Of a stretch of DNA of 25,301 bases, positions 1,382-12,194 are shown one piece after another. Position numbers and translations under genes: made by a program. This DNA is from a virus. Location of the stretch: the UHGV virus genome UHGV-0254345; one strand, given 5' to 3'. Position 1 is the first letter of the stretch, and every line of letters starts with the position of its first letter. Below the pieces are notes generated by a model. That model had not been told where the DNA came from and ran no database searches. It worked only from the letters and a program-made list of their open reading frames with translations.

Positions 1382-1933
1382 ATGATGAAATTACAACCCA
1401 TGGGGCGAAAAGGTCGTGCACCTGCTCATGTCCGCCCGTGGACACCTGAAGAAGATGCGCTGCTGATTGCGCTTTATTCCTCCACCCCGGTTAAGGATAT
1501 TGCCGCCAGAATAAAAAGAAGTGTCTGGGCCGTATATAACCGGACTGGCGTATTGCGCAGTACATACCCGGAGTTGCTGAAATATAAACGACCGCGATTT
1601 ACACCTGATGAAGATAAATTTATCCGAAAAAATGCCCGGACAATGACCTGCCAGCAAATGGGGGATTATCTCGGACGTAATAAAGACTCTGTCAGGTGCC
1701 GCGCAGGAATGATTGGTGCCGGATTAACAAAGTGCGGTGAGTTACGCCCCGGCACACGTATATCTGATGAGGATGTTCGTCTTATACGTGCACTACGGGA
1801 TTCCGATTACCCTCGCCGTCTGTCATTCCGGGAAATTGGCGAAAAGTTTGGCATATCTGAACATTCTGCTCACGCTGTTTATTACCGTCGACGGACCGCC
1901 GAGGACGCTGTATTACGGGAGTTAACGCCATGA
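1382..1933 (+). CDS. putative DNA-binding protein with tandem Myb/SANT-like HTH repeats
   Basis: GGGGG SD-like run upstream of ATG; three repeats of a W/F-T-P-(E/D)-ED…L-like motif (PWTPEEDALL, RFTPDEDKFI, ISDEDVRLI) typical of Myb/SANT-type helix-turn-helix domains; stop overlaps next start (ATGA). Confidence 0.5.
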   Translation: MMKLQPMGRKGRAPAHVRPWTPEEDALLIALYSSTPVKDIAARIKRSVWAVYNRTGVLRSTYPELLKYKRPRFTPDEDKFIRKNARTMTCQQMGDYLGRNKDSVRCRAGMIGAGLTKCGELRPGTRISDEDVRLIRALRDSDYPRRLSFREIGEKFGISEHSAHAVYYRRRTAEDAVLRELTP

Positions 1934-5728: not shown

Positions 5729-6011
5729 TTTCATTACTGAAGATCAGCGTCTTGTCATTCTGCGGTCGCTGGCGGATTACAACGGCGAACTGGGCGAATC
5801 CGTGCTTCAGGACTGCCTGGATGATTACGGCCACCGCGTGTCCCGCGACACCGTTCACACCCACATTGCCTGGCTTGCTGAGCAGGGACTGGTGCGTAAG
5901 CGCACGCTTGTTAACGGTTATTTCATCGCTGAACTGACCGGCCGGGGTCAGGATGTGGCGGAAGGTCGTGCCACTGTTCCGGGTGTGAAGAAACCACGCG
6001 CAAGGGGGTAA
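5721..6011 (+). CDS. hypothetical protein (possible winged-helix), Mu gp26-like position
   Basis: AAGGA upstream of ATG; 96 aa; overlaps upstream stop; ends 2 nt before TerS-like start. Confidence 0.5.
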   Translation: MSDFITEDQRLVILRSLADYNGELGESVLQDCLDDYGHRVSRDTVHTHIAWLAEQGLVRKRTLVNGYFIAELTGRGQDVAEGRATVPGVKKPRARG

Positions 6012-6013
6012 CG

Positions 6014-6595
6014 ATGGATAAGCCGACGCGTGGCCGTGTACGCAAGGTGGATTTGCTCCCCGACAGCATCCGTAAGCCGCTGCTGGAAATGCTGCGTGAA
6101 AAACGCCTGACGCAGGTCCAGATCCGCGAGGAAATCAACCGTCTGATCCGTGAGGCAGGCCTGCCGGAAGAGCAGCAGCTTTCACCGGCGGCCATCAGCC
6201 GGGAAGCCTCCCGTAATGAGCTGATTGCCCGTAATCTGCGTGATTTACGCGAGCAGACAAAAGCCATGATGGCCGAACTGGGGGATAAGCCGACCGGTGA
6301 AACCACGGCACTGATTCTGGAGATGTCCCGTGCCCTGATGTACCGCCGTCTGCGTGCCGCCACCGAATCCCTGAACAGCGACAGCGATGTGGATATGCGC
6401 CTTATTAAGGACATCCTCCTGTCGGCACAGCGTGCGGAAAGTGCCGCCGAGCGCAGCATTAAGCGTGAAAAAGAAATCCGGGCCGCATTTGCTGAAGAGA
6501 TGGCGAACGCCGTCACCGACGAGTTGCGCGGCGTGGATGGCATGAGCGAGCAGATAGAATTCCGTATCAGGCAGATGCTGCTTGGTAAGGCGTAG
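6014..6595 (+). CDS. terminase small subunit-like protein (Mu gp27 / DUF3486-like)
   Basis: AAGGGGG SD; 193 aa, basic N-terminus (RGRVRKVDLLPDSIRK) consistent with a DNA-binding small terminase; immediately upstream of large terminase. Confidence 0.6.
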   Translation: MDKPTRGRVRKVDLLPDSIRKPLLEMLREKRLTQVQIREEINRLIREAGLPEEQQLSPAAISREASRNELIARNLRDLREQTKAMMAELGDKPTGETTALILEMSRALMYRRLRAATESLNSDSDVDMRLIKDILLSAQRAESAAERSIKREKEIRAAFAEEMANAVTDELRGVDGMSEQIEFRIRQMLLGKA

Positions 6596-6605
6596 GAGGT
6601 GAATC

Positions 6606-6854
6606 GTGGTAACAGATAACCGCTCACTGATGAGCAGTGCTCATCAGAAGGCATTCAGTCTTGCAACACAGTTACCTCCTGAAACCATAAAAGCGTGTCG
6701 TGAGTTGACTGAACTCAGCATTGCCGGGGAAATATCCCTGGAACAACTGCATTCGCTGCTGGCAGGGGCTGTCACTGATGAGTTGAGTGGCGTGGACGTG
6801 ATGACTGAAGAGCTTGAGTTCCGAATCAAAAGCATTCTGACAGGTAAAGCCTGA
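6606..6854 (+). CDS. small protein carrying a duplicated TerS C-terminal tail (function unknown)
   Basis: GTG start with AGGAGG 6 nt upstream; stop overlaps TerL ATG; last 28 aa AVTDELSGVDVMTEELEFRIKSILTGKA match the TerS C-terminus AVTDELRGVDGMSEQIEFRIRQMLLGKA at 19/28 positions. Confidence 0.6.
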   Translation: MVTDNRSLMSSAHQKAFSLATQLPPETIKACRELTELSIAGEISLEQLHSLLAGAVTDELSGVDVMTEELEFRIKSILTGKA

Positions 6855-8518
6855 TGAACAAAGCCAAAGAAAAGTCTCCTTCACTGATACAAATGACACC
6901 TCCCCGCAAAATTGATCTGTCCGGTGAAAAAGCCCTGCTGGGCGTGGATGTGCCGGACAGCCTTGATTTGCCCGGTGATATGCCGGTGTTTCTGGATTAT
7001 CAGGCCCGCTGGTTTGCAGATGAAAGTCAGGTCTGCATCGCGGAGAAATCCCGACGCACCGGGCTTACCTGGGCGGAAGCCGGGCGTAACGTCATTACCG
7101 CCGCAAAGCCTAAGCGTCGTGGTGGCCGTAATGTGTTTTATGTGGGGTCAAAACAGGAGATGGCGCTGGAATATATTTCTGCCTGCGCGCTGTTCTCCCG
7201 TGCCTTTAACCAGCTGGCAGATGCTGATGTGTATGAGCAGACATTCTGGGATCGGGATAAAAAAGAAGAAATTCTGACCTACATGATCCGCTTTCCGAAC
7301 AGTGGATTCAAAATTCAGGCATTGTCTTCCCGTCCGTCAAACCTGCGCGGTCTTCAGGGGGATGTGGTGATTGATGAAGCCGCGTTCCACGAGTCACTGG
7401 ATGAGCTTCTCAAGGCGGCAATGGCGCTTACCATGTGGGGCGCACGCGTGCGCATTATTTCCACGCATAACGGCGTCGATAATCTGTTTAATCAGTACAT
7501 TCAGGAAGCCCGCGAGGGGCGCAAGGATTACAGCGTCCACCGCATAACCCTGGATGATGCCATTGCGGACGGGCTGTACCGTCGTATCTGTTACGTCACC
7601 GATCAGGAATGGTCACCGGAAAGCGAGCAGAAATGGCGTGATGATCTCTACAAAAACGCCCCGACCCGTGAGGATGCCGACGAGGAATACGGCTGTATCC
7701 CGAAAAAATCCGGCGGTGCCTATATTCCTCACGCGCTTATTGAAATGGCGATGATTCGTGACATCCCGATTCTGACGTTTGAAGCCCCGGACGACTTCAT
7801 CAGCCGTGCCGCATGGCTGCGTGAATCGGAAGTTTTAACCTGGTGTGAAGAACATTTAAAACCGCTTACAGAGAAATTAAATCCCCGTTCCCGCTTCAGC
7901 TTCGGGGAAGACTTTGCCCGCACCGGTGACCTGTCCTGCTTTGTGCTGCTGGAAATCACCGAACTCCTGGCAAAGCGCGAGGTGTTTCGCGTGGAGCTGC
8001 GCAACCTGCCGTATGCCCAGCAGGAACAGGTGATGATGTACATCCTGACCCGCGTTCCGGCGCTGGTCGGTGCGGCGTTCGACGCCACCGGTAACGGCGG
8101 CTATCTGGCAGAGGCCGCACTGCTGGCCTTTGGCCCGGACATCATCGACTGCGTGATGTTGTCGCCGAAGTGGTACGGCGAGTGGATGCCAAAACTGAAA
8201 GCCGAGTTTGAAGATCAGAATATCCTCGTCGCCCGCCATCAGACCACGCTTGATGATTTGCGCCATGTGAAGGTGGTGAATGGTATCCCGCAAATCGACA
8301 AGGGGCGCACGAAGGACCAGAACGCAACGGCTGCGAACGCCCGCCGCCATGGTGATTTTGCCGTGGCACTCTGTATGGCAAACCGGGCGTCATACATGGA
8401 GGGTTTCATCCTGGATGAATCAGCCTGTCAGGCGCTACCGGAGCGGTCGCGGGCAATGGAGGGCGGTTATCGTGATGACGATGAGGCATATCATGAATTT
8501 GATCGGGGGGGCTGGTAG
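6854..8518 (+). CDS. terminase large subunit (Mu gp28-like)
   Basis: 554 aa, between TerS-like and portal genes; stop overlaps portal start. Confidence 0.8.
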   Translation: MNKAKEKSPSLIQMTPPRKIDLSGEKALLGVDVPDSLDLPGDMPVFLDYQARWFADESQVCIAEKSRRTGLTWAEAGRNVITAAKPKRRGGRNVFYVGSKQEMALEYISACALFSRAFNQLADADVYEQTFWDRDKKEEILTYMIRFPNSGFKIQALSSRPSNLRGLQGDVVIDEAAFHESLDELLKAAMALTMWGARVRIISTHNGVDNLFNQYIQEAREGRKDYSVHRITLDDAIADGLYRRICYVTDQEWSPESEQKWRDDLYKNAPTREDADEEYGCIPKKSGGAYIPHALIEMAMIRDIPILTFEAPDDFISRAAWLRESEVLTWCEEHLKPLTEKLNPRSRFSFGEDFARTGDLSCFVLLEITELLAKREVFRVELRNLPYAQQEQVMMYILTRVPALVGAAFDATGNGGYLAEAALLAFGPDIIDCVMLSPKWYGEWMPKLKAEFEDQNILVARHQTTLDDLRHVKVVNGIPQIDKGRTKDQNATAANARRHGDFAVALCMANRASYMEGFILDESACQALPERSRAMEGGYRDDDEAYHEFDRGGW

Positions 8519-10107
8519 TGGGACGCATCATTGATACTGACGGAAAACCTTTCTCCTTTGACCCGGAGATGCAGAGTGCCGCGCTGGATATTCCGCAGAT
8601 TGCCAGCCGTTATATTGAACATCCGGCTTCGGGTATCACCCCGAACCGGGCGGCGCAGTGCCTTCGCGGGGCTGAACGTGGCGATCTGATTGCCCAGTCC
8701 GATCTGGCCGCTGATATTGAAGAAAAGGACACCCACCTTTTTGCGGAGCTGGGCAAGCGACGTCTTGCCATTCAGGGGGTGCCATGGAGTATTGAGCCGC
8801 CACCGAACGCCAGCGCGAATGAGAAAAAGGACGCGGAAATGCTCGACGAATATCTGCATTCCGCAGACTGGTTTGATGCCATGCTGTTTGACGCCACGGA
8901 TGCCATCCTGAAGGGCTATTCCTGCATGGAAATTGAGCACGGGATGCTCGGTAAAATGCACATCATCCGCGCCATCCGCTGGCGTGACAGCGGGCATTTC
9001 TGCCTTAACCCGGATGATTTGAGCGAACTGCGGCTGCGTGACGGCAGCCATTCCGGGGTGGCGTTTCAGCCCTTTGGCTGGATAGTGCATCAGTCGCGTT
9101 CACGCACCGGTTACGGTGGTGCAACCGGGCTTGTCCGGACGCTTATCTGGCCGTTCATTTTCAAAAACTATTCCGTGCGCGATCTGGCGGAATTTCTGGA
9201 GGTGTACGGCCTGCCGATGAAGGTCGGGAAATACCCGTCCGGGGCAACACCGGAGCAGAAAAGTGCCCTGATGCGGGCGGTGATGGATATCGGGCGACGT
9301 ACAGGCGGGATCATCCCGGCCGGGATGTCGCTGGAGTTTCAGGCGGCAGCGAACGGTCAGGCCGATCCGTTTGAAACCATGATTTCGTGGGGGGAGCGTT
9401 CCATCTCCAAAGCAATACTCGGCGGCACGCTGACCACGGAAGCCGGAGACAAAGGCGCGCGCTCACTGGGTGAGGTACATAACGAGGTGCGCCGGGAAAT
9501 CAGGGATTCTGATTTACGACAGCTGGCTGCAACCCTGAACCGCGATCTGGTGTATCCGCTGTACGCCCTGAACACCACGCACACTATTGATATCCGCCGT
9601 CTGCCACGTATCTGCTTCCAGACAAAAGAACCAGGTGATATCACCAAAATCACCAGTGCGGTGATGCAGCTCAGTACGGGGATGGATATTTCTGATCCCT
9701 GGATACGTGAGCAGACCGGTATTCCGCAGCCCACGCCCGGTGAAGCCATATTCCGTGTCCGTCAGAGTGGCAATGAACCGGCTCAGACCGACAGGGAAAC
9801 ACCACCGGAAAAACAGGAAAAAACAGAGCAGACGGCGCTGTCAGCCAGACTGCCGGAAGCGAAAAGCACGCCGCGTGATGAACTGGATGATATGGGGGAC
9901 GCGGTGCCTGCCCGCCGCTTACAGGAGGCCATCGACCCGGTACTGGAGCCGGTCATTGATGCCATCAGAACGCGGGGGCTGGCGGATGCGCTGGCAGACC
10001 TGCCTGCCCTTTATCGTGAAATGGATGATTCCCGCCTGATGACGCTGCTCAGTGATGCCATGTTTGCTGCGGAAATGAAGGGGATGCTGGATGGCTCAGG
10101 AGATTGA
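8518..10107 (+). CDS. portal protein (Mu gp29 / DUF935 family)
   Basis: GTG start overlapping TerL stop with G-rich SD upstream; 529 aa; position and length as Mu portal. Confidence 0.8.
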   Translation: MGRIIDTDGKPFSFDPEMQSAALDIPQIASRYIEHPASGITPNRAAQCLRGAERGDLIAQSDLAADIEEKDTHLFAELGKRRLAIQGVPWSIEPPPNASANEKKDAEMLDEYLHSADWFDAMLFDATDAILKGYSCMEIEHGMLGKMHIIRAIRWRDSGHFCLNPDDLSELRLRDGSHSGVAFQPFGWIVHQSRSRTGYGGATGLVRTLIWPFIFKNYSVRDLAEFLEVYGLPMKVGKYPSGATPEQKSALMRAVMDIGRRTGGIIPAGMSLEFQAAANGQADPFETMISWGERSISKAILGGTLTTEAGDKGARSLGEVHNEVRREIRDSDLRQLAATLNRDLVYPLYALNTTHTIDIRRLPRICFQTKEPGDITKITSAVMQLSTGMDISDPWIREQTGIPQPTPGEAIFRVRQSGNEPAQTDRETPPEKQEKTEQTALSARLPEAKSTPRDELDDMGDAVPARRLQEAIDPVLEPVIDAIRTRGLADALADLPALYREMDDSRLMTLLSDAMFAAEMKGMLDGSGD

Positions 10108-11422
10108 TTTAGGTTATGCCGCCACGCTTCCCTCAAAAGAGACGGTGGCATACTTCCGCGCCAAAGGGGCGCATATCAGCTGGAACTGGTTCGAAACAGC
10201 CGCGGATGTTCATGCCCGCTCATTCACGGCAGCAAAAACGGCACGGCTGGATGTGGTGACCACATTACAGGCCGAAGTGCAGCGGGCCATTGATGAGGGG
10301 ATTTCACAGAAAGAATTTATCCGCACGCTGACGCCACGCCTGCAAAAGCTGGGATGGTGGGGAAAGCAGATTGTGGTGGACAGCGACGGTAACGCGGAAG
10401 AAGTGCAGCTGGGCAGTCCCCGTCGTCTGGCGCTGATTTACAACGTGAACACCCGTGTGGCTTACAATGCCGGGCGTTACACGCAGATGATGAACAACAC
10501 GGACACGCATCCGTTCTGGCAGTATGTGGCGGTCATGGACAGCCGTACCCGCCCGTCGCATTCCGCCCTTAACGGTCTGGTATTCCGCTATGACGATCCG
10601 TTCTGGAAAACACACTACCCGCCCAATGGCTGGAACTGCCGCTGCCGTGTGCGGCCATTGTCTCAGGCCCGTCTGGATGCAATGGGGTTATCCGTTTCAT
10701 CCGGTGAGGATCATCTCTCCACCCGCAATGTTGAGGCTGGCGTGGATAAACAGACCGGAGAAGTCAGAGAAATGCCGGTGACCACATATTCAGATGGCAC
10801 CAGAACCATGACACCGGATGTGGGCTGGTCATATAACCCCGGCTCGGCAGCGTTCGGCACAGACCAGGCGCTGATCCGCAAACTGATCGAGGTGAAAAGC
10901 CCGGCGTTACGGGAAATGGTGGTTCAGGAGATGAACAACAGCCCGGAGCGGCAGCTGGCGTTCCGCATCTGGGCAAAAAACATCATGCAGACCCGGCGAG
11001 GTGGTAACGATATCCGCACGCTGGGCTTTATGACTGAAAGCATTGCGCAGGCAGTGGAAAGCCGGACGGGAACGCCACCGGCCCGCCTGCTGGCGATGAG
11101 CGGTAAAAATGTGCTCCATGCGGACAGTGTGAAACATCAGAATGACGGCATCGCTCTGACGCCGGAGGACTTCGGGCGCTTACCGGCAATGCTGGCAAGG
11201 CCAAAAGCGGTACTGTGGGACAAACGGCACAACAATCTGATGTATATCGTGGAAAATCAGGATGGCAGTGTGCAGATTGCCGTTAATGCACCGTACAGTC
11301 TGAAACGTCAGCCCGACAAACTGGATGTGATTGTGAATGCTTACCGGGTTATCAATATGGATAAGCTGAAATCGGATATCCGGGGCGGAATGCTTGAGGT
11401 GCTGGAAGGACAAATTGATTAA
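10091..11422 (+). CDS. head morphogenesis protein (Mu F-like)
   Basis: 443 aa; overlaps portal 3' end; Mu gene order portal-F-G-I-T. Confidence 0.8.
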   Translation: MAQEIDLGYAATLPSKETVAYFRAKGAHISWNWFETAADVHARSFTAAKTARLDVVTTLQAEVQRAIDEGISQKEFIRTLTPRLQKLGWWGKQIVVDSDGNAEEVQLGSPRRLALIYNVNTRVAYNAGRYTQMMNNTDTHPFWQYVAVMDSRTRPSHSALNGLVFRYDDPFWKTHYPPNGWNCRCRVRPLSQARLDAMGLSVSSGEDHLSTRNVEAGVDKQTGEVREMPVTTYSDGTRTMTPDVGWSYNPGSAAFGTDQALIRKLIEVKSPALREMVVQEMNNSPERQLAFRIWAKNIMQTRRGGNDIRTLGFMTESIAQAVESRTGTPPARLLAMSGKNVLHADSVKHQNDGIALTPEDFGRLPAMLARPKAVLWDKRHNNLMYIVENQDGSVQIAVNAPYSLKRQPDKLDVIVNAYRVINMDKLKSDIRGGMLEVLEGQID

Positions 11423-11505
11423 CGGTCAGTGGCGGGGGTCGAACCCGCATACATGATCCACCCGGAGGCAGGCACCGACTTTACCAGTTAAGCGTACACT
11501 GACCG
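11423..11505 (-). other. tRNA-like structured element (acceptor-like stem plus canonical T-arm; no anticodon arm found)
   Basis: On the minus strand: 9-bp perfect stem (11423-11431 with 11497-11505) stacked on a 5-bp stem GCGGG/CCCGC closing a 7-nt loop TTCGACC (T-loop-like); a D-arm-like hairpin with GG loop is possible; hand search found no 5-bp anticodon stem. Confidence 0.3.
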
Positions 11506-11543
11506 CCTGTTTATTTTATATTCATCCTTTATGCGGAGGCAAT

Positions 11544-12017
11544 ATGTCATCCATTGATGCCGCTGTCGTTGTTGACGTTACGCGTCTCCAGCGGGTGTTT
11601 GCCCGGCTTCAGTTTGTGGGCGGCGGAAAAGACCTGGCCCGCAGTGTGGCGGAGAGTCTTCTGTCATCGTCAGAAATGGCGTTTGAACAGGAAAAAGAGC
11701 CGGACGGCGAACGCTGGCATGACTGGTCAGATCCTTACCGCAAGTGGCGTACCCGTAAGGGATACACGCCCGGCAAAATCCTGACACTGAACGGCGATCT
11801 GGCCCGCCGCCTGACCACGGATTATGGCGATACCTGGGCGCTGATTGGATCAAATGAACCTTATGCGGCCATTCATCAGTGGGGTGGCCTGCCTGGTATG
11901 CCACCGGGACCGGCGGCCATTGGCGCACGTCCGTATATGGGCTTTGATCAGGTGGCAGAACAGGAGATCATGGACGAAATCAGAAAACGCTTTAAAAAGG
12001 CCACAGAAACGCCGTAA
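11544..12017 (+). CDS. virion morphogenesis protein (Mu G-like)
   Basis: GGAGG 7 nt upstream of ATG; 157 aa; position after F. Confidence 0.75.
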   Translation: MSSIDAAVVVDVTRLQRVFARLQFVGGGKDLARSVAESLLSSSEMAFEQEKEPDGERWHDWSDPYRKWRTRKGYTPGKILTLNGDLARRLTTDYGDTWALIGSNEPYAAIHQWGGLPGMPPGPAAIGARPYMGFDQVAEQEIMDEIRKRFKKATETP

Positions 12018-12194
12018 TGGTTTAAGGTATACAAACGCATTGCCTTACCCTCTTCAGGCGCGTGTCGTGATTTTCTAACCTGTATTTAACGGGCTTTAAA
12101 ATCTGCGTGAAGCGCCTTTCTCATTTTTCCCCTGTCAGCACTTTCTGAAGTCCCGCAAAACCGGCCCCGAAAAACACCGGCTTATGCTGCCGGA

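Follow-up and report, generated by a model that had tools for sequence, protein, structure and literature searches.

A tRNA-shaped RNA gene with a replaced anticodon arm at the F-G junction of a Mu-like prophage

The UHGV virus genome UHGV-0254345 (25,301 nucleotides (nt); hereafter the window, i.e. the whole stretch of DNA that was analysed) comprised the early-to-late region of a Mu-like prophage, based on Pfam matches of the window proteins. Between its genes F and G, the minus strand contained a gene for a transfer RNA (tRNA)-shaped RNA of approximately 83 nt (11423-11505, including a closing helix of 9 base pairs (bp)). We propose, with a probability of roughly 45%, that this gene encodes a non-decoding mimic of the tRNA body, that it has its own promoter and that it is a moron-like insert between F and G, opposing the late operon. 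The evidence that the element is a real, selected gene was strong, and the evidence for its job was weak. On single-sequence evidence alone the element was marginal; the comparison with relatives decided.

Covariation, tRNA body and closed ends

To obtain relatives, viral, metagenomic and species-representative collections were scanned with patterns and the G protein was used as a further query, which together yielded 26 distinct variants. The set was raised to 32 distinct variants by a further viral scan and by searches with a covariance model of the family. Over these 32 sequences, 93.4% of the stem cells were in standard pairs, and both-sided (compensatory) changes were present at 12 of the 18 pairs. 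The test for compensatory changes in related prophages, which had been proposed in an earlier note made from the window sequence alone, was thus positive. The observed percentage of paired cells and the covariation score were not reached by any of 500 column shuffles, and pairing was 35-56% in a control in which the 3′ partners were slid by 1-3 columns. An earlier, independent MAFFT-based set displayed the same covariation picture. The acceptor stem of the window (GUCAGUG/CACUGAC) corresponded to GCCGGUG/CACCGGC, GUUGAUG/CAUUAAC or GCUGGUG/CACCAGC in relatives, and the T-stem (GCGGG/CCCGC, 98.8% of cells paired in the family) to GUGGG/CCCAC and GCAGG/CCUGC. In the D-stem, compensatory changes were carried by pairs 11:24 and 13:22. 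Wobble pairs identified the minus-strand RNA as the selected molecule: in the first 26 variants, G·U cells numbered 29 on the minus strand, and A·C cells, which would be wobbles of the plus strand, numbered 2.

The positions that form the tertiary core of a tRNA were also conserved. U8, A14, G18G19, A21 and the T-loop residues U54, U55 and C56 were invariant in all 26 variants, the purine at position 57 was G in 25 of the 26, A58 was present in 23 of the 26, and the D-loop was almost invariant. This conservation indicates that the tRNA elbow, and not a mere set of hairpins, has been preserved. Two variants of the T-loop (11437-11443) recurred among the relatives. TTCAACC (G57A) was observed in loci L046 and L047, and TTCGCCC was observed in prophage copies otherwise identical to the window (L007, L013, L024, L027, L028 and L031) and in the last unit of some of the chromosomal islands described below (L001 and L082). 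Such recurrence may reflect relaxed constraint or exchange between prophages and islands.

The window copy is a complete L-shaped tRNA body. Canonical tRNA positions 1-73 corresponded to 11503-11424 on the minus strand, and all parts are given here in the direction of that strand. The 7-bp acceptor stem was lengthened by its flanks to a perfect 9-bp helix, of which the 5′ strand CGGTCAGTG (11505-11497; CG followed by GTCAGTG, i.e. positions -2 and -1 and acceptor positions 1-7) paired with the 3′ strand CACTGACCG (11431-11423; CACTGAC followed by CG, i.e. acceptor positions 66-72 and positions 73-74), as supported by sequence and covariation. The sequence continued with U8, A9 and one extra C ahead of the D-stem (11496-11494). 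The D-arm (11493-11478), as placed by the Rfam tRNA alignment, consisted of GCTT (11493-11490), the loop AACTGGTA (11489-11482) and AAGT (11481-11478), with G18G19, A14 and A21 all in place. The variable loop was represented by the 5 nt TGTAT (11453-11449; from the sequence and the family alignment), the last U of which can form the A15-U48 Levitt pair, as assigned by standard tRNA numbering. Sequence and Rfam alignment also defined the T-arm, with GCGGG (11448-11444), the loop TTCGACC (11443-11437) and CCCGC (11436-11432), and its 5-bp stem was stacked on the 9-bp helix without a gap. No CCA was encoded, the 3′ flank of the helix being CGTTA.

Where the tRNA model has 18 anticodon-arm positions, the RNA had 24 nt (11477-11454, from the Rfam alignment and the fold). 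These formed a hairpin of CTGCC/GGTGG with the tetraloop TCCG (11466-11463) closed by a C-G pair, to which two further outer pairs and bulges were added. The c(UCCG)g motif is a tetraloop of the UNCG type. No 5-bp anticodon stem with a 7-nt loop carrying U33 and a purine at position 37 was present in the window. The earlier note had drawn the 9-bp helix, the stacked 5-bp stem with its TΨC-like TTCGACC loop and a D-arm-like hairpin with a GG-containing loop, and had found no anticodon stem-loop; it had concluded that the element is not a canonical tRNA. Each of these observations was reproduced at the coordinates above. Its suggestion of a tRNA-like minihelix was correct as to the likeness to tRNA and too narrow as to the extent, as an entire L-shaped body is present.

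Across the family, the replacement of the anticodon arm was always a hairpin, highly variable in sequence and length. The tetraloop c(UUCG)g was present in four different stem backgrounds, and UCCG, UCAG, UCAA, UAAC and GUAA were further tetraloops of the family. In one class of arms (type C), 8-position stems of unrelated sequence still paired and were closed by loops of 6-14 nt; the stem CUCGUCAG/CUGACGGG was fully paired, and CCUGAGGG/CCCGAAGG had two central mismatches. The sole 7-nt loop, UUAGUCA, occurred in an Edwardsiella-type variant, without a purine at position 37. Because unusually stable tetraloops were acquired repeatedly, we regard the arm as a structural cap rather than as a product of decay. 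Base-pairing targets of the large arm loops were also considered. With the element masked, 9-10-nt matches were found in three loci (approximately 0.15-0.2 expected by chance in each), on inconsistent strands and at unrelated positions; they are not counted here, and no consistent target emerged.

At the other end of the molecule, the helix ran past the 1:72 pair, as positions -1 and -2 paired with 73 and 74. These pairs covaried (CG/CG, AG/CU, AG/UU and others), and the closing helix comprised a total of 8-11 bp. Neither position 73 (C, U or A) nor the 1:72 pair was conserved, and no CCA was encoded. Both working ends of a tRNA thus appear to be closed off.

This bears on the idea that the RNA is a chargeable tRNA-like molecule, matured through RNase P cleavage, 3′ trimming and CCA addition and aminoacylated by virtue of its acceptor identity (e.g. 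G-1:C73, as in tRNA-His). The charged product would serve a purpose other than normal decoding, or unusual loops would allow some variants to decode. G-1:C73 was indeed present in the window and in many prophage variants, the Edwardsiella-type variant has a 7-nt loop, and the automatic annotation of PGAP calls an island unit with GUA in its loop 'tRNA-Tyr'. However, position 73 and the 1:72 pair varied, A-1:U73 and U-1:A73 also occurred, and the covariation of -1:73 and -2:74 is an argument for continued pairing at these positions in the functional RNA. Moreover, most arms ended in tetraloops, the 'Tyr' loop had 6 nt and lay inside a perfect 16-nt palindrome, and no CCA was available from the sequence. 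A chargeable RNA is improbable in our judgement, to about the same degree as the decaying pseudogene discussed further below.

Detection, expression signals and distribution

The covariance-model search that the earlier note had proposed gave a match to the Rfam tRNA family RF00005 on the minus strand (11503-11424, full model 1-71) with 31.0 bits (E = 9.4e-5), slightly above the gathering score of 29. It was obtained on a 351-nt region with permissive filters, and the element was not reported by the default gathering scan of the whole window with Rfam. A family covariance model built from the relatives (R1) matched 11420-11507 with 93 bits (E ~1e-22) and had no other match in the window. ARAGORN was run on 20 sources, the window and 19 related loci, and called none of the family members as a tRNA. 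Its search for transfer-messenger RNA (tmRNA) was negative, and the element matched neither an Rfam tmRNA nor an Rfam Y RNA. Other Rfam families gave only weak, chance-level matches (STnc480, 17.6 bits against 72, and sR55) and were discarded. The folding energy of the 121-nt interval between F and G was ordinary on either strand (z = -0.63 and -0.47). With an unremarkable folding energy, a silent ARAGORN and a default Rfam scan that misses the element, the support rests on homology and covariation and not on thermodynamics.

RefSeq/PGAP labelled the locus 'tRNA-OTHER' in many Escherichia coli genomes, and a sequence identical to that of the window was so labelled in E. coli FORC_069. Full-text literature searches turned up no description of this RNA family. 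The sole earlier record found was this automatic label, together with 'tRNA-Tyr' in the islands.

A candidate promoter of the sigma-70 type, TTGCCT-18-TAAAAT, was detected by a promoter scan on the minus strand at 11542-11513. Its -10 hexamer TAAAAT (11518-11513) was located 7 nt ahead of the first paired base, and an 18-nt spacer separated it from the -35-like hexamer TTGCCT (11542-11537). Since the -10 hexamer ends 7 nt before the helix, transcription should start at or just before the helix. A -10 hexamer matching at least five of six positions (TAAAAT, TATACT or TATATT) was present 6-12 nt before the helix in 17 of the 22 promoter-bearing members, compared with a background rate of 1.8% in random windows from the same loci. 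Several members had a TG extended -10, and the geometry TTGCCY-17/18-TAAAAT was retained in diverged relatives, the flanks of which were unrelated apart from the promoter elements. On the plus strand, the -35 hexamer overlaps the stretch that separates the ATG of G from its Shine-Dalgarno sequence. Its conservation is ambiguous because of this overlap with the ribosome-binding region of G.

The earlier note had also considered that the plus strand of the same sequence could act as an atypical terminator or pause site, which would then operate in the late mRNA, and a related possibility is a DNA element such as a protein-binding or recombination site. In the window, the 9-bp helix is indeed followed on the plus strand by a T-rich run, and the T-arm forms an inverted repeat. 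However, the terminator scan called no terminator on the plus strand at 11423-11520, and in relatives the T-rich run was set apart from the helix, being the complement of the conserved minus-strand -10. Furthermore, transcription has to read through this site to reach G, a downstream gene of the same operon, and the distribution of wobble pairs favoured the minus strand. A role as an integration target (attB) was rejected as well, as no interrupted copy was found in 231 matching E. coli records, in which partial matches were restricted to the units of the islands. An element acting through the plus strand or the DNA was already disfavoured and is, in our assessment, very improbable.

Among complete E. 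coli genomes, a 161-nt region containing the element matched 230 of 5426 (blastn), and variants only 72-76% identical occupied the same F-G junction. The same search gave only members of the own family and no chromosomal tRNA, and an origin from a host tRNA was rejected. In species-representative genomes, the strict pattern had no matches and a looser pattern matched only Edwardsiella anguillarum and Citrobacter braakii. The F-G position and the antisense orientation were constant in phages whose F protein was 33-64% identical to that of the window (L099, L098, L100, L102 and the fragmentary L073). In phage Mu, this junction lacks a spacer altogether, F and G overlapping by 4 nt, and in relative L064, which does not carry the element, the stop codon of F is directly ahead of the ribosome-binding site of G. 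As the element is missing at the same junction in Mu and L064, it is best described as an insertion of approximately 120 nt of the moron type.

A second, more diverged member of the family was observed in L073 (118-198, minus strand; 42 bits, E ~1e-8), with a TATACT -10 of its own. The two members were approximately 550 nt apart on this 1.1-kb metagenome contig and were separated by a frame similar to the C-terminus of F, broken by a stop codon. A variant similar to the diverged L073 member was present at the F-G junction of L102.

Islands, local mosaicism and neighbouring genes

Units of the family were also found away from the F-G junction. Islands of approximately 8 kb, resembling phage-inducible chromosomal islands (PICI), carried two to three tandem units downstream of mor behind a single promoter and co-oriented with mor (for example at 2996-3195 of L001). 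The island viewed in full (L069, 1-9700) corresponded to positions 743000-752700 of the E. coli JNEC-KY179 chromosome and was integrated at tRNA-Ile, between mug and nfeF. It encoded an integrase, Ash, Icd-like proteins, a RepA-type helicase, SSB and PerC, together with a homologue of Mor that shared 44% identity with Mor of the window. Island L088 had units that resembled each of three arm classes of the prophages, and it was the last unit of the islands that PGAP labelled 'tRNA-Tyr'. The mor-plus-RNA segment was present in 15 of 5426 E. coli genomes. At least three of these 15 were also among the listed carriers of the Mu-like prophage, which was found in approximately 4% of genomes overall. 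The island looks like a PICI-type satellite and may exploit Mu-like helpers. Between mor and the promoter of the array, L069 also contained a cluster of short direct repeats of the GTGAAA type (1790-1880, minus strand; e.g. gtgaaagaaggtgaaagaaggtgatttttgtgaaattaagcgaaatcacgtgaaatcaggtgaaataatg), which look like iterons or protein-binding sites.

A third context was a mini-Mu-like element (L096, 1-14830, and L101; IMG/VR UViG 2919497567 and 2921608179) with genes for a DDE transposase, a MuB-like ATPase, Mor and a gpT-like capsid protein and without F or G. Its 786-amino acid (aa) AAA_13 protein matched the PADLOC candidate PDC-S06 (E 2e-180) and its DUF2971 protein the PADLOC candidate PDC-S31. 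The element contained one tRNA-like unit, 213 nt upstream of the DUF2971 gene and on the same strand. The source genome of L101 also carried a full Mu-like prophage with a unit of its own (L100). As the covarying stems persisted in the islands and in the mini-Mu-like element, away from F and G, the RNA probably acts in trans.

These data also bear on the possibility of a decaying tRNA pseudogene that has lost its anticodon and has no function, as the earlier note had allowed with a degenerate tRNA. The absence of a usable anticodon loop, the marginal Rfam score missed with default filters, the A58C and G57A variants of the T-loop and the highly variable arm would all fit such decay. Against it, the parts outside the anticodon arm covaried over deep divergence, with compensatory changes at 12 of 18 pairs and 93% pairing, and the tertiary core and the promoter were conserved. 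In addition, special tetraloops were gained repeatedly, which is not the pattern of random drift, and the units were amplified to arrays in a second kind of mobile element. A degenerate tRNA is accordingly improbable, and this reading was already disfavoured.

The sequence around the RNA gene was mosaic. A divergent cassette (approximately 11200-11540), delimited by comparison of identities, comprised the RNA gene with its promoter and the final ~75 codons of F. It was 62-69% identical to three E. coli relatives, with flanks of 92-100% identity, and ended at the start codon of G. The part of F within the cassette belonged to the MuF_C domain. Across lineages, the final ~20 residues of F sorted with the arm class of the RNA. 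This sorting could reflect a functional pairing of the F tail with the RNA arm; physical linkage explains it equally well, and we treat it only as a lead.

One explanation that builds on the mosaic cassette is that the RNA is the cognate partner of the C-terminal domain of MuF, or of another component of the virion or its assembly, and that its arm and the F tail are a matched pair acting in head assembly or DNA delivery. The satellite-like islands would then carry all arm types to engage or jam the F protein of any helper. Consistent with this, the divergent cassette is asymmetric, pairing the RNA with the end of F (within MuF_C, residues 347-429) and stopping at the start of G; the F tail sorts with the arm type, the units of L088 resemble each of the three prophage types, and at least three of the 15 PICI-bearing genomes also carry a Mu-like prophage, compared with 4% overall. 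However, the F tail adjoins the RNA gene, so that linkage alone accounts for their co-inheritance, and it is precisely in the arm loops that the units of the islands depart from those of the prophages. The number of co-occurrences is small and refers to listed genomes only, and binding of RNA by MuF is purely hypothetical. We consider such a partnership unlikely, and place it after the antisense explanation discussed below.

The genes identified with Pfam were on the plus strand throughout the window. Besides the head protein MuF (F, 10091-11422, with the MuF_C match at residues 347-429), they encoded GemA, Mor, a lysozyme, an Rz1-like protein, gp27, protease I, the major head protein gpT, a Mu-type portal (8518-10107) and the G/virion-morphogenesis protein (11544-12017). 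The F-G spacer was 121 nt, and the stop codon of F (11420-11422, plus strand) directly abutted the 3′ strand of the closing helix. An open reading frame (ORF) of 77 aa with a TTG start (11180-11413, minus strand) lay just past the RNA gene and coincided with the divergent block. It was rejected as a hidden protein gene and is taken as a chance ORF, because other variants have no comparable ORF.

Three further observations concern the surroundings. A 554-aa ORF (6854-8518) at the position of the large terminase (Mu gp28) had no Pfam match at E ≤ 0.01, and its homologues in related loci were 47-56% identical (tblastn). The 177-nt spacer between G and I (12018-12194) may hold a strong gyrase site equivalent to the central 'gyrase cut site' that the Mu record annotates 20 nt after G. 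A 243-aa antisense ORF (5923-6654, minus strand) overlapped plus-strand phage genes, had no Pfam match and is probably a chance ORF.

Proposed role and comparison with known systems

As it lacks an anticodon loop, a conserved discriminator and a free NCCA, the RNA is unable to decode and probably remains uncharged, which makes a mimic of the tRNA body the most economical model. The conservation of the elbow and the tertiary core implies that something recognising the tRNA shape matters, such as maturation or modification enzymes or a tRNA-binding effector. In the mechanism we propose, transcription would start at the base of the helix or a few nt from it, and the 3′ end would be made by trimming to the stable helix. 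The RNA would then act in trans as a mimic of the tRNA body and occupy a protein whose recognition of tRNA involves the elbow, the acceptor or the T region. Favoured targets would be tRNA-targeting nucleases of immunity or competition, or tRNA-processing factors, with the RNA serving as a decoy. Which partner the RNA engages or evades would depend on the variable arm, and this would explain the satellite-like islands with arrays of two to three units with different arms. It is conceivable, and in our view rather doubtful, that Mu-like phages and their apparent satellites share a dedicated class of L-shaped, 'double-blunted' tRNA-body mimics, capped at the anticodon end, closed at the acceptor end and expressed from promoters of their own. 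In these, the interchangeable arm would be a specificity module, directed at different tRNA-recognising nucleases of immunity or competition, with the multi-unit arrays of the satellites as an arsenal of decoys, or, in a helper-satellite conflict, at the co-varying C-terminal tail of MuF.

Several points weigh against the proposed tRNA-body mimic. The transcript, its ends and its abundance are predictions from the DNA. The terminator scan found no terminator downstream of the RNA gene on the minus strand, so that trimming to the closing helix is the likely origin of the 3′ end. The arm hairpins were only modestly more stable than their shuffles (mean z = -0.84; p ≤ 0.05 for 3 of 26). The T-loop variant TTCGCCC was present in 12 loci, islands included, and its A58C change would weaken the canonical T-loop, which may indicate relaxed constraint in some lineages. 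No tRNA-related enzyme was encoded among the window ORFs scanned. A decoy against tRNA-targeting nucleases is the favoured candidate role, proposed solely by analogy with phage tRNAs that counter such systems. Finally, a role in cis could be indicated by the strict conservation of a single genomic position over deep divergence.

Such a role in cis is the main rival to the tRNA-body mimic. The RNA would be a cis-acting antisense regulator of the late F-G mRNA, and its tRNA shape a mere module for stabilisation or processing. It could work through convergent transcription at the end of a lys-type late operon, or through pairing with the 3′ end of F and the F-G spacer followed by cleavage by RNase III. 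The outcome would be an adjusted expression of G (or F), or suppression of leaky late transcription in lysogens. This would explain the strict synteny, in which the site and the antisense direction are unchanged among Mu-like phages with F proteins 35-100% identical. It also agrees with the overlap of the -35 with the translation start region of G, with the lack of a terminator, by which transcription should read antisense into F, and with the inclusion of the last ~75 codons of F in the divergent cassette. However, a stabilising hairpin would not need conserved U8, A14, G18G19, A21 and T-loop residues. Moreover, the family covaries in islands and in the mini-Mu-like element, where there is no F-G mRNA, and in the islands it is co-oriented with mor. 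We regard a cis-antisense role as not very likely, and prefer the tRNA-body mimic acting in trans.

If the RNA is a decoy or a protein-specific ligand, it would add an RNA-based player to the conflict between phage and host or between phage and satellite. RNA anti-CRISPRs, which mimic crRNA repeats, are comparable to a decoy role. E. coli, with its O157 strains that have this type of Mu-like prophage, would also offer a simple system in which the RNA can be tested. Whereas 'tRNA-OTHER' is usually read as junk or as the fragment of an att site, the label here covers a selected, promoter-bearing family with a tRNA body that has lost both working ends, that was long retained at one Mu-like junction and that was copied to arrays in satellite-looking elements. 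As a practical warning, 'tRNA-OTHER' calls in prophages can be functional non-coding RNAs.

The 'tRNA-OTHER' or undetermined-isotype calls of tRNAscan-SE are reportedly often att-site fragments or artefacts (PMC9897764). The label itself is silent on function; in contrast to such calls, the element is a full-length, covarying and promoter-bearing gene family. With canonical tRNA (RF00005) it shares the 7-bp acceptor stem, the D-arm with G18G19, the UUCGA-type T-loop, U8, A14 and A21 and a variable loop of 5 nt. It differs from canonical tRNA in that a tetraloop-capped or long variable hairpin replaces the 5-bp stem and 7-nt anticodon loop, that two to four extra covarying pairs are present instead of a free NCCA and that an extra nucleotide is inserted between position 9 and the D-stem. 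tmRNA likewise mimics the acceptor and T-arm without an anticodon arm. Unlike tmRNA, the element has no mRNA-like frame or pseudoknots, its 3:70 pair is C-G and not the G3·U70 of alanine identity, its D-arm is complete and its length is only ~83 nt. Nor is the element a plant-virus 3′ tRNA-like structure.

Phage tRNAs are another tRNA-type RNA encoded by mobile elements. The tRNA-Tyr of phage T5, for example, reportedly counters the retron Ec78, a tRNA-targeting immunity system (bioRxiv 10.1101/2023.03.15.532788). The value of such phage tRNAs is likewise proposed to lie in the conflict with tRNA-cleaving defences, and they are functional decoders that replace cleaved host tRNAs, unlike the element. 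Because it cannot decode, the element could only compete or inhibit.

In the bacterial Y RNA YrlA, the two RNA ends make up the Ro-binding stem, which lies at the anticodon side, and a loop closes the acceptor. Its tRNA-like domain reportedly also mimics the tRNA elbow, with a D-arm, a T-arm and an acceptor-like stem (PMC4201824; bioRxiv 10.1101/312249). The topology of the element is inverted relative to YrlA, as its ends are at the acceptor side and the anticodon side is closed. It is also not in an rsr neighbourhood, and no rsr-like or rtc gene was present among the window ORFs scanned.

The mascRNA-type small RNAs are eukaryotic and arise when RNase P and RNase Z cut them from the 3′ end of a long transcript, and their tRNA fold serves biogenesis or stability. 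A recent report on this type (MALAT1/MEN-beta) describes a tRNA shape with a non-functional anticodon arm and no decoding, features that the element shares (bioRxiv 10.64898/2026.01.19.700226). The element differs in being a stand-alone bacterial gene with its own candidate promoter and has no sequence relationship with these RNAs. With regard to function, it most resembles such mascRNA-like, tRNA-like small RNAs.

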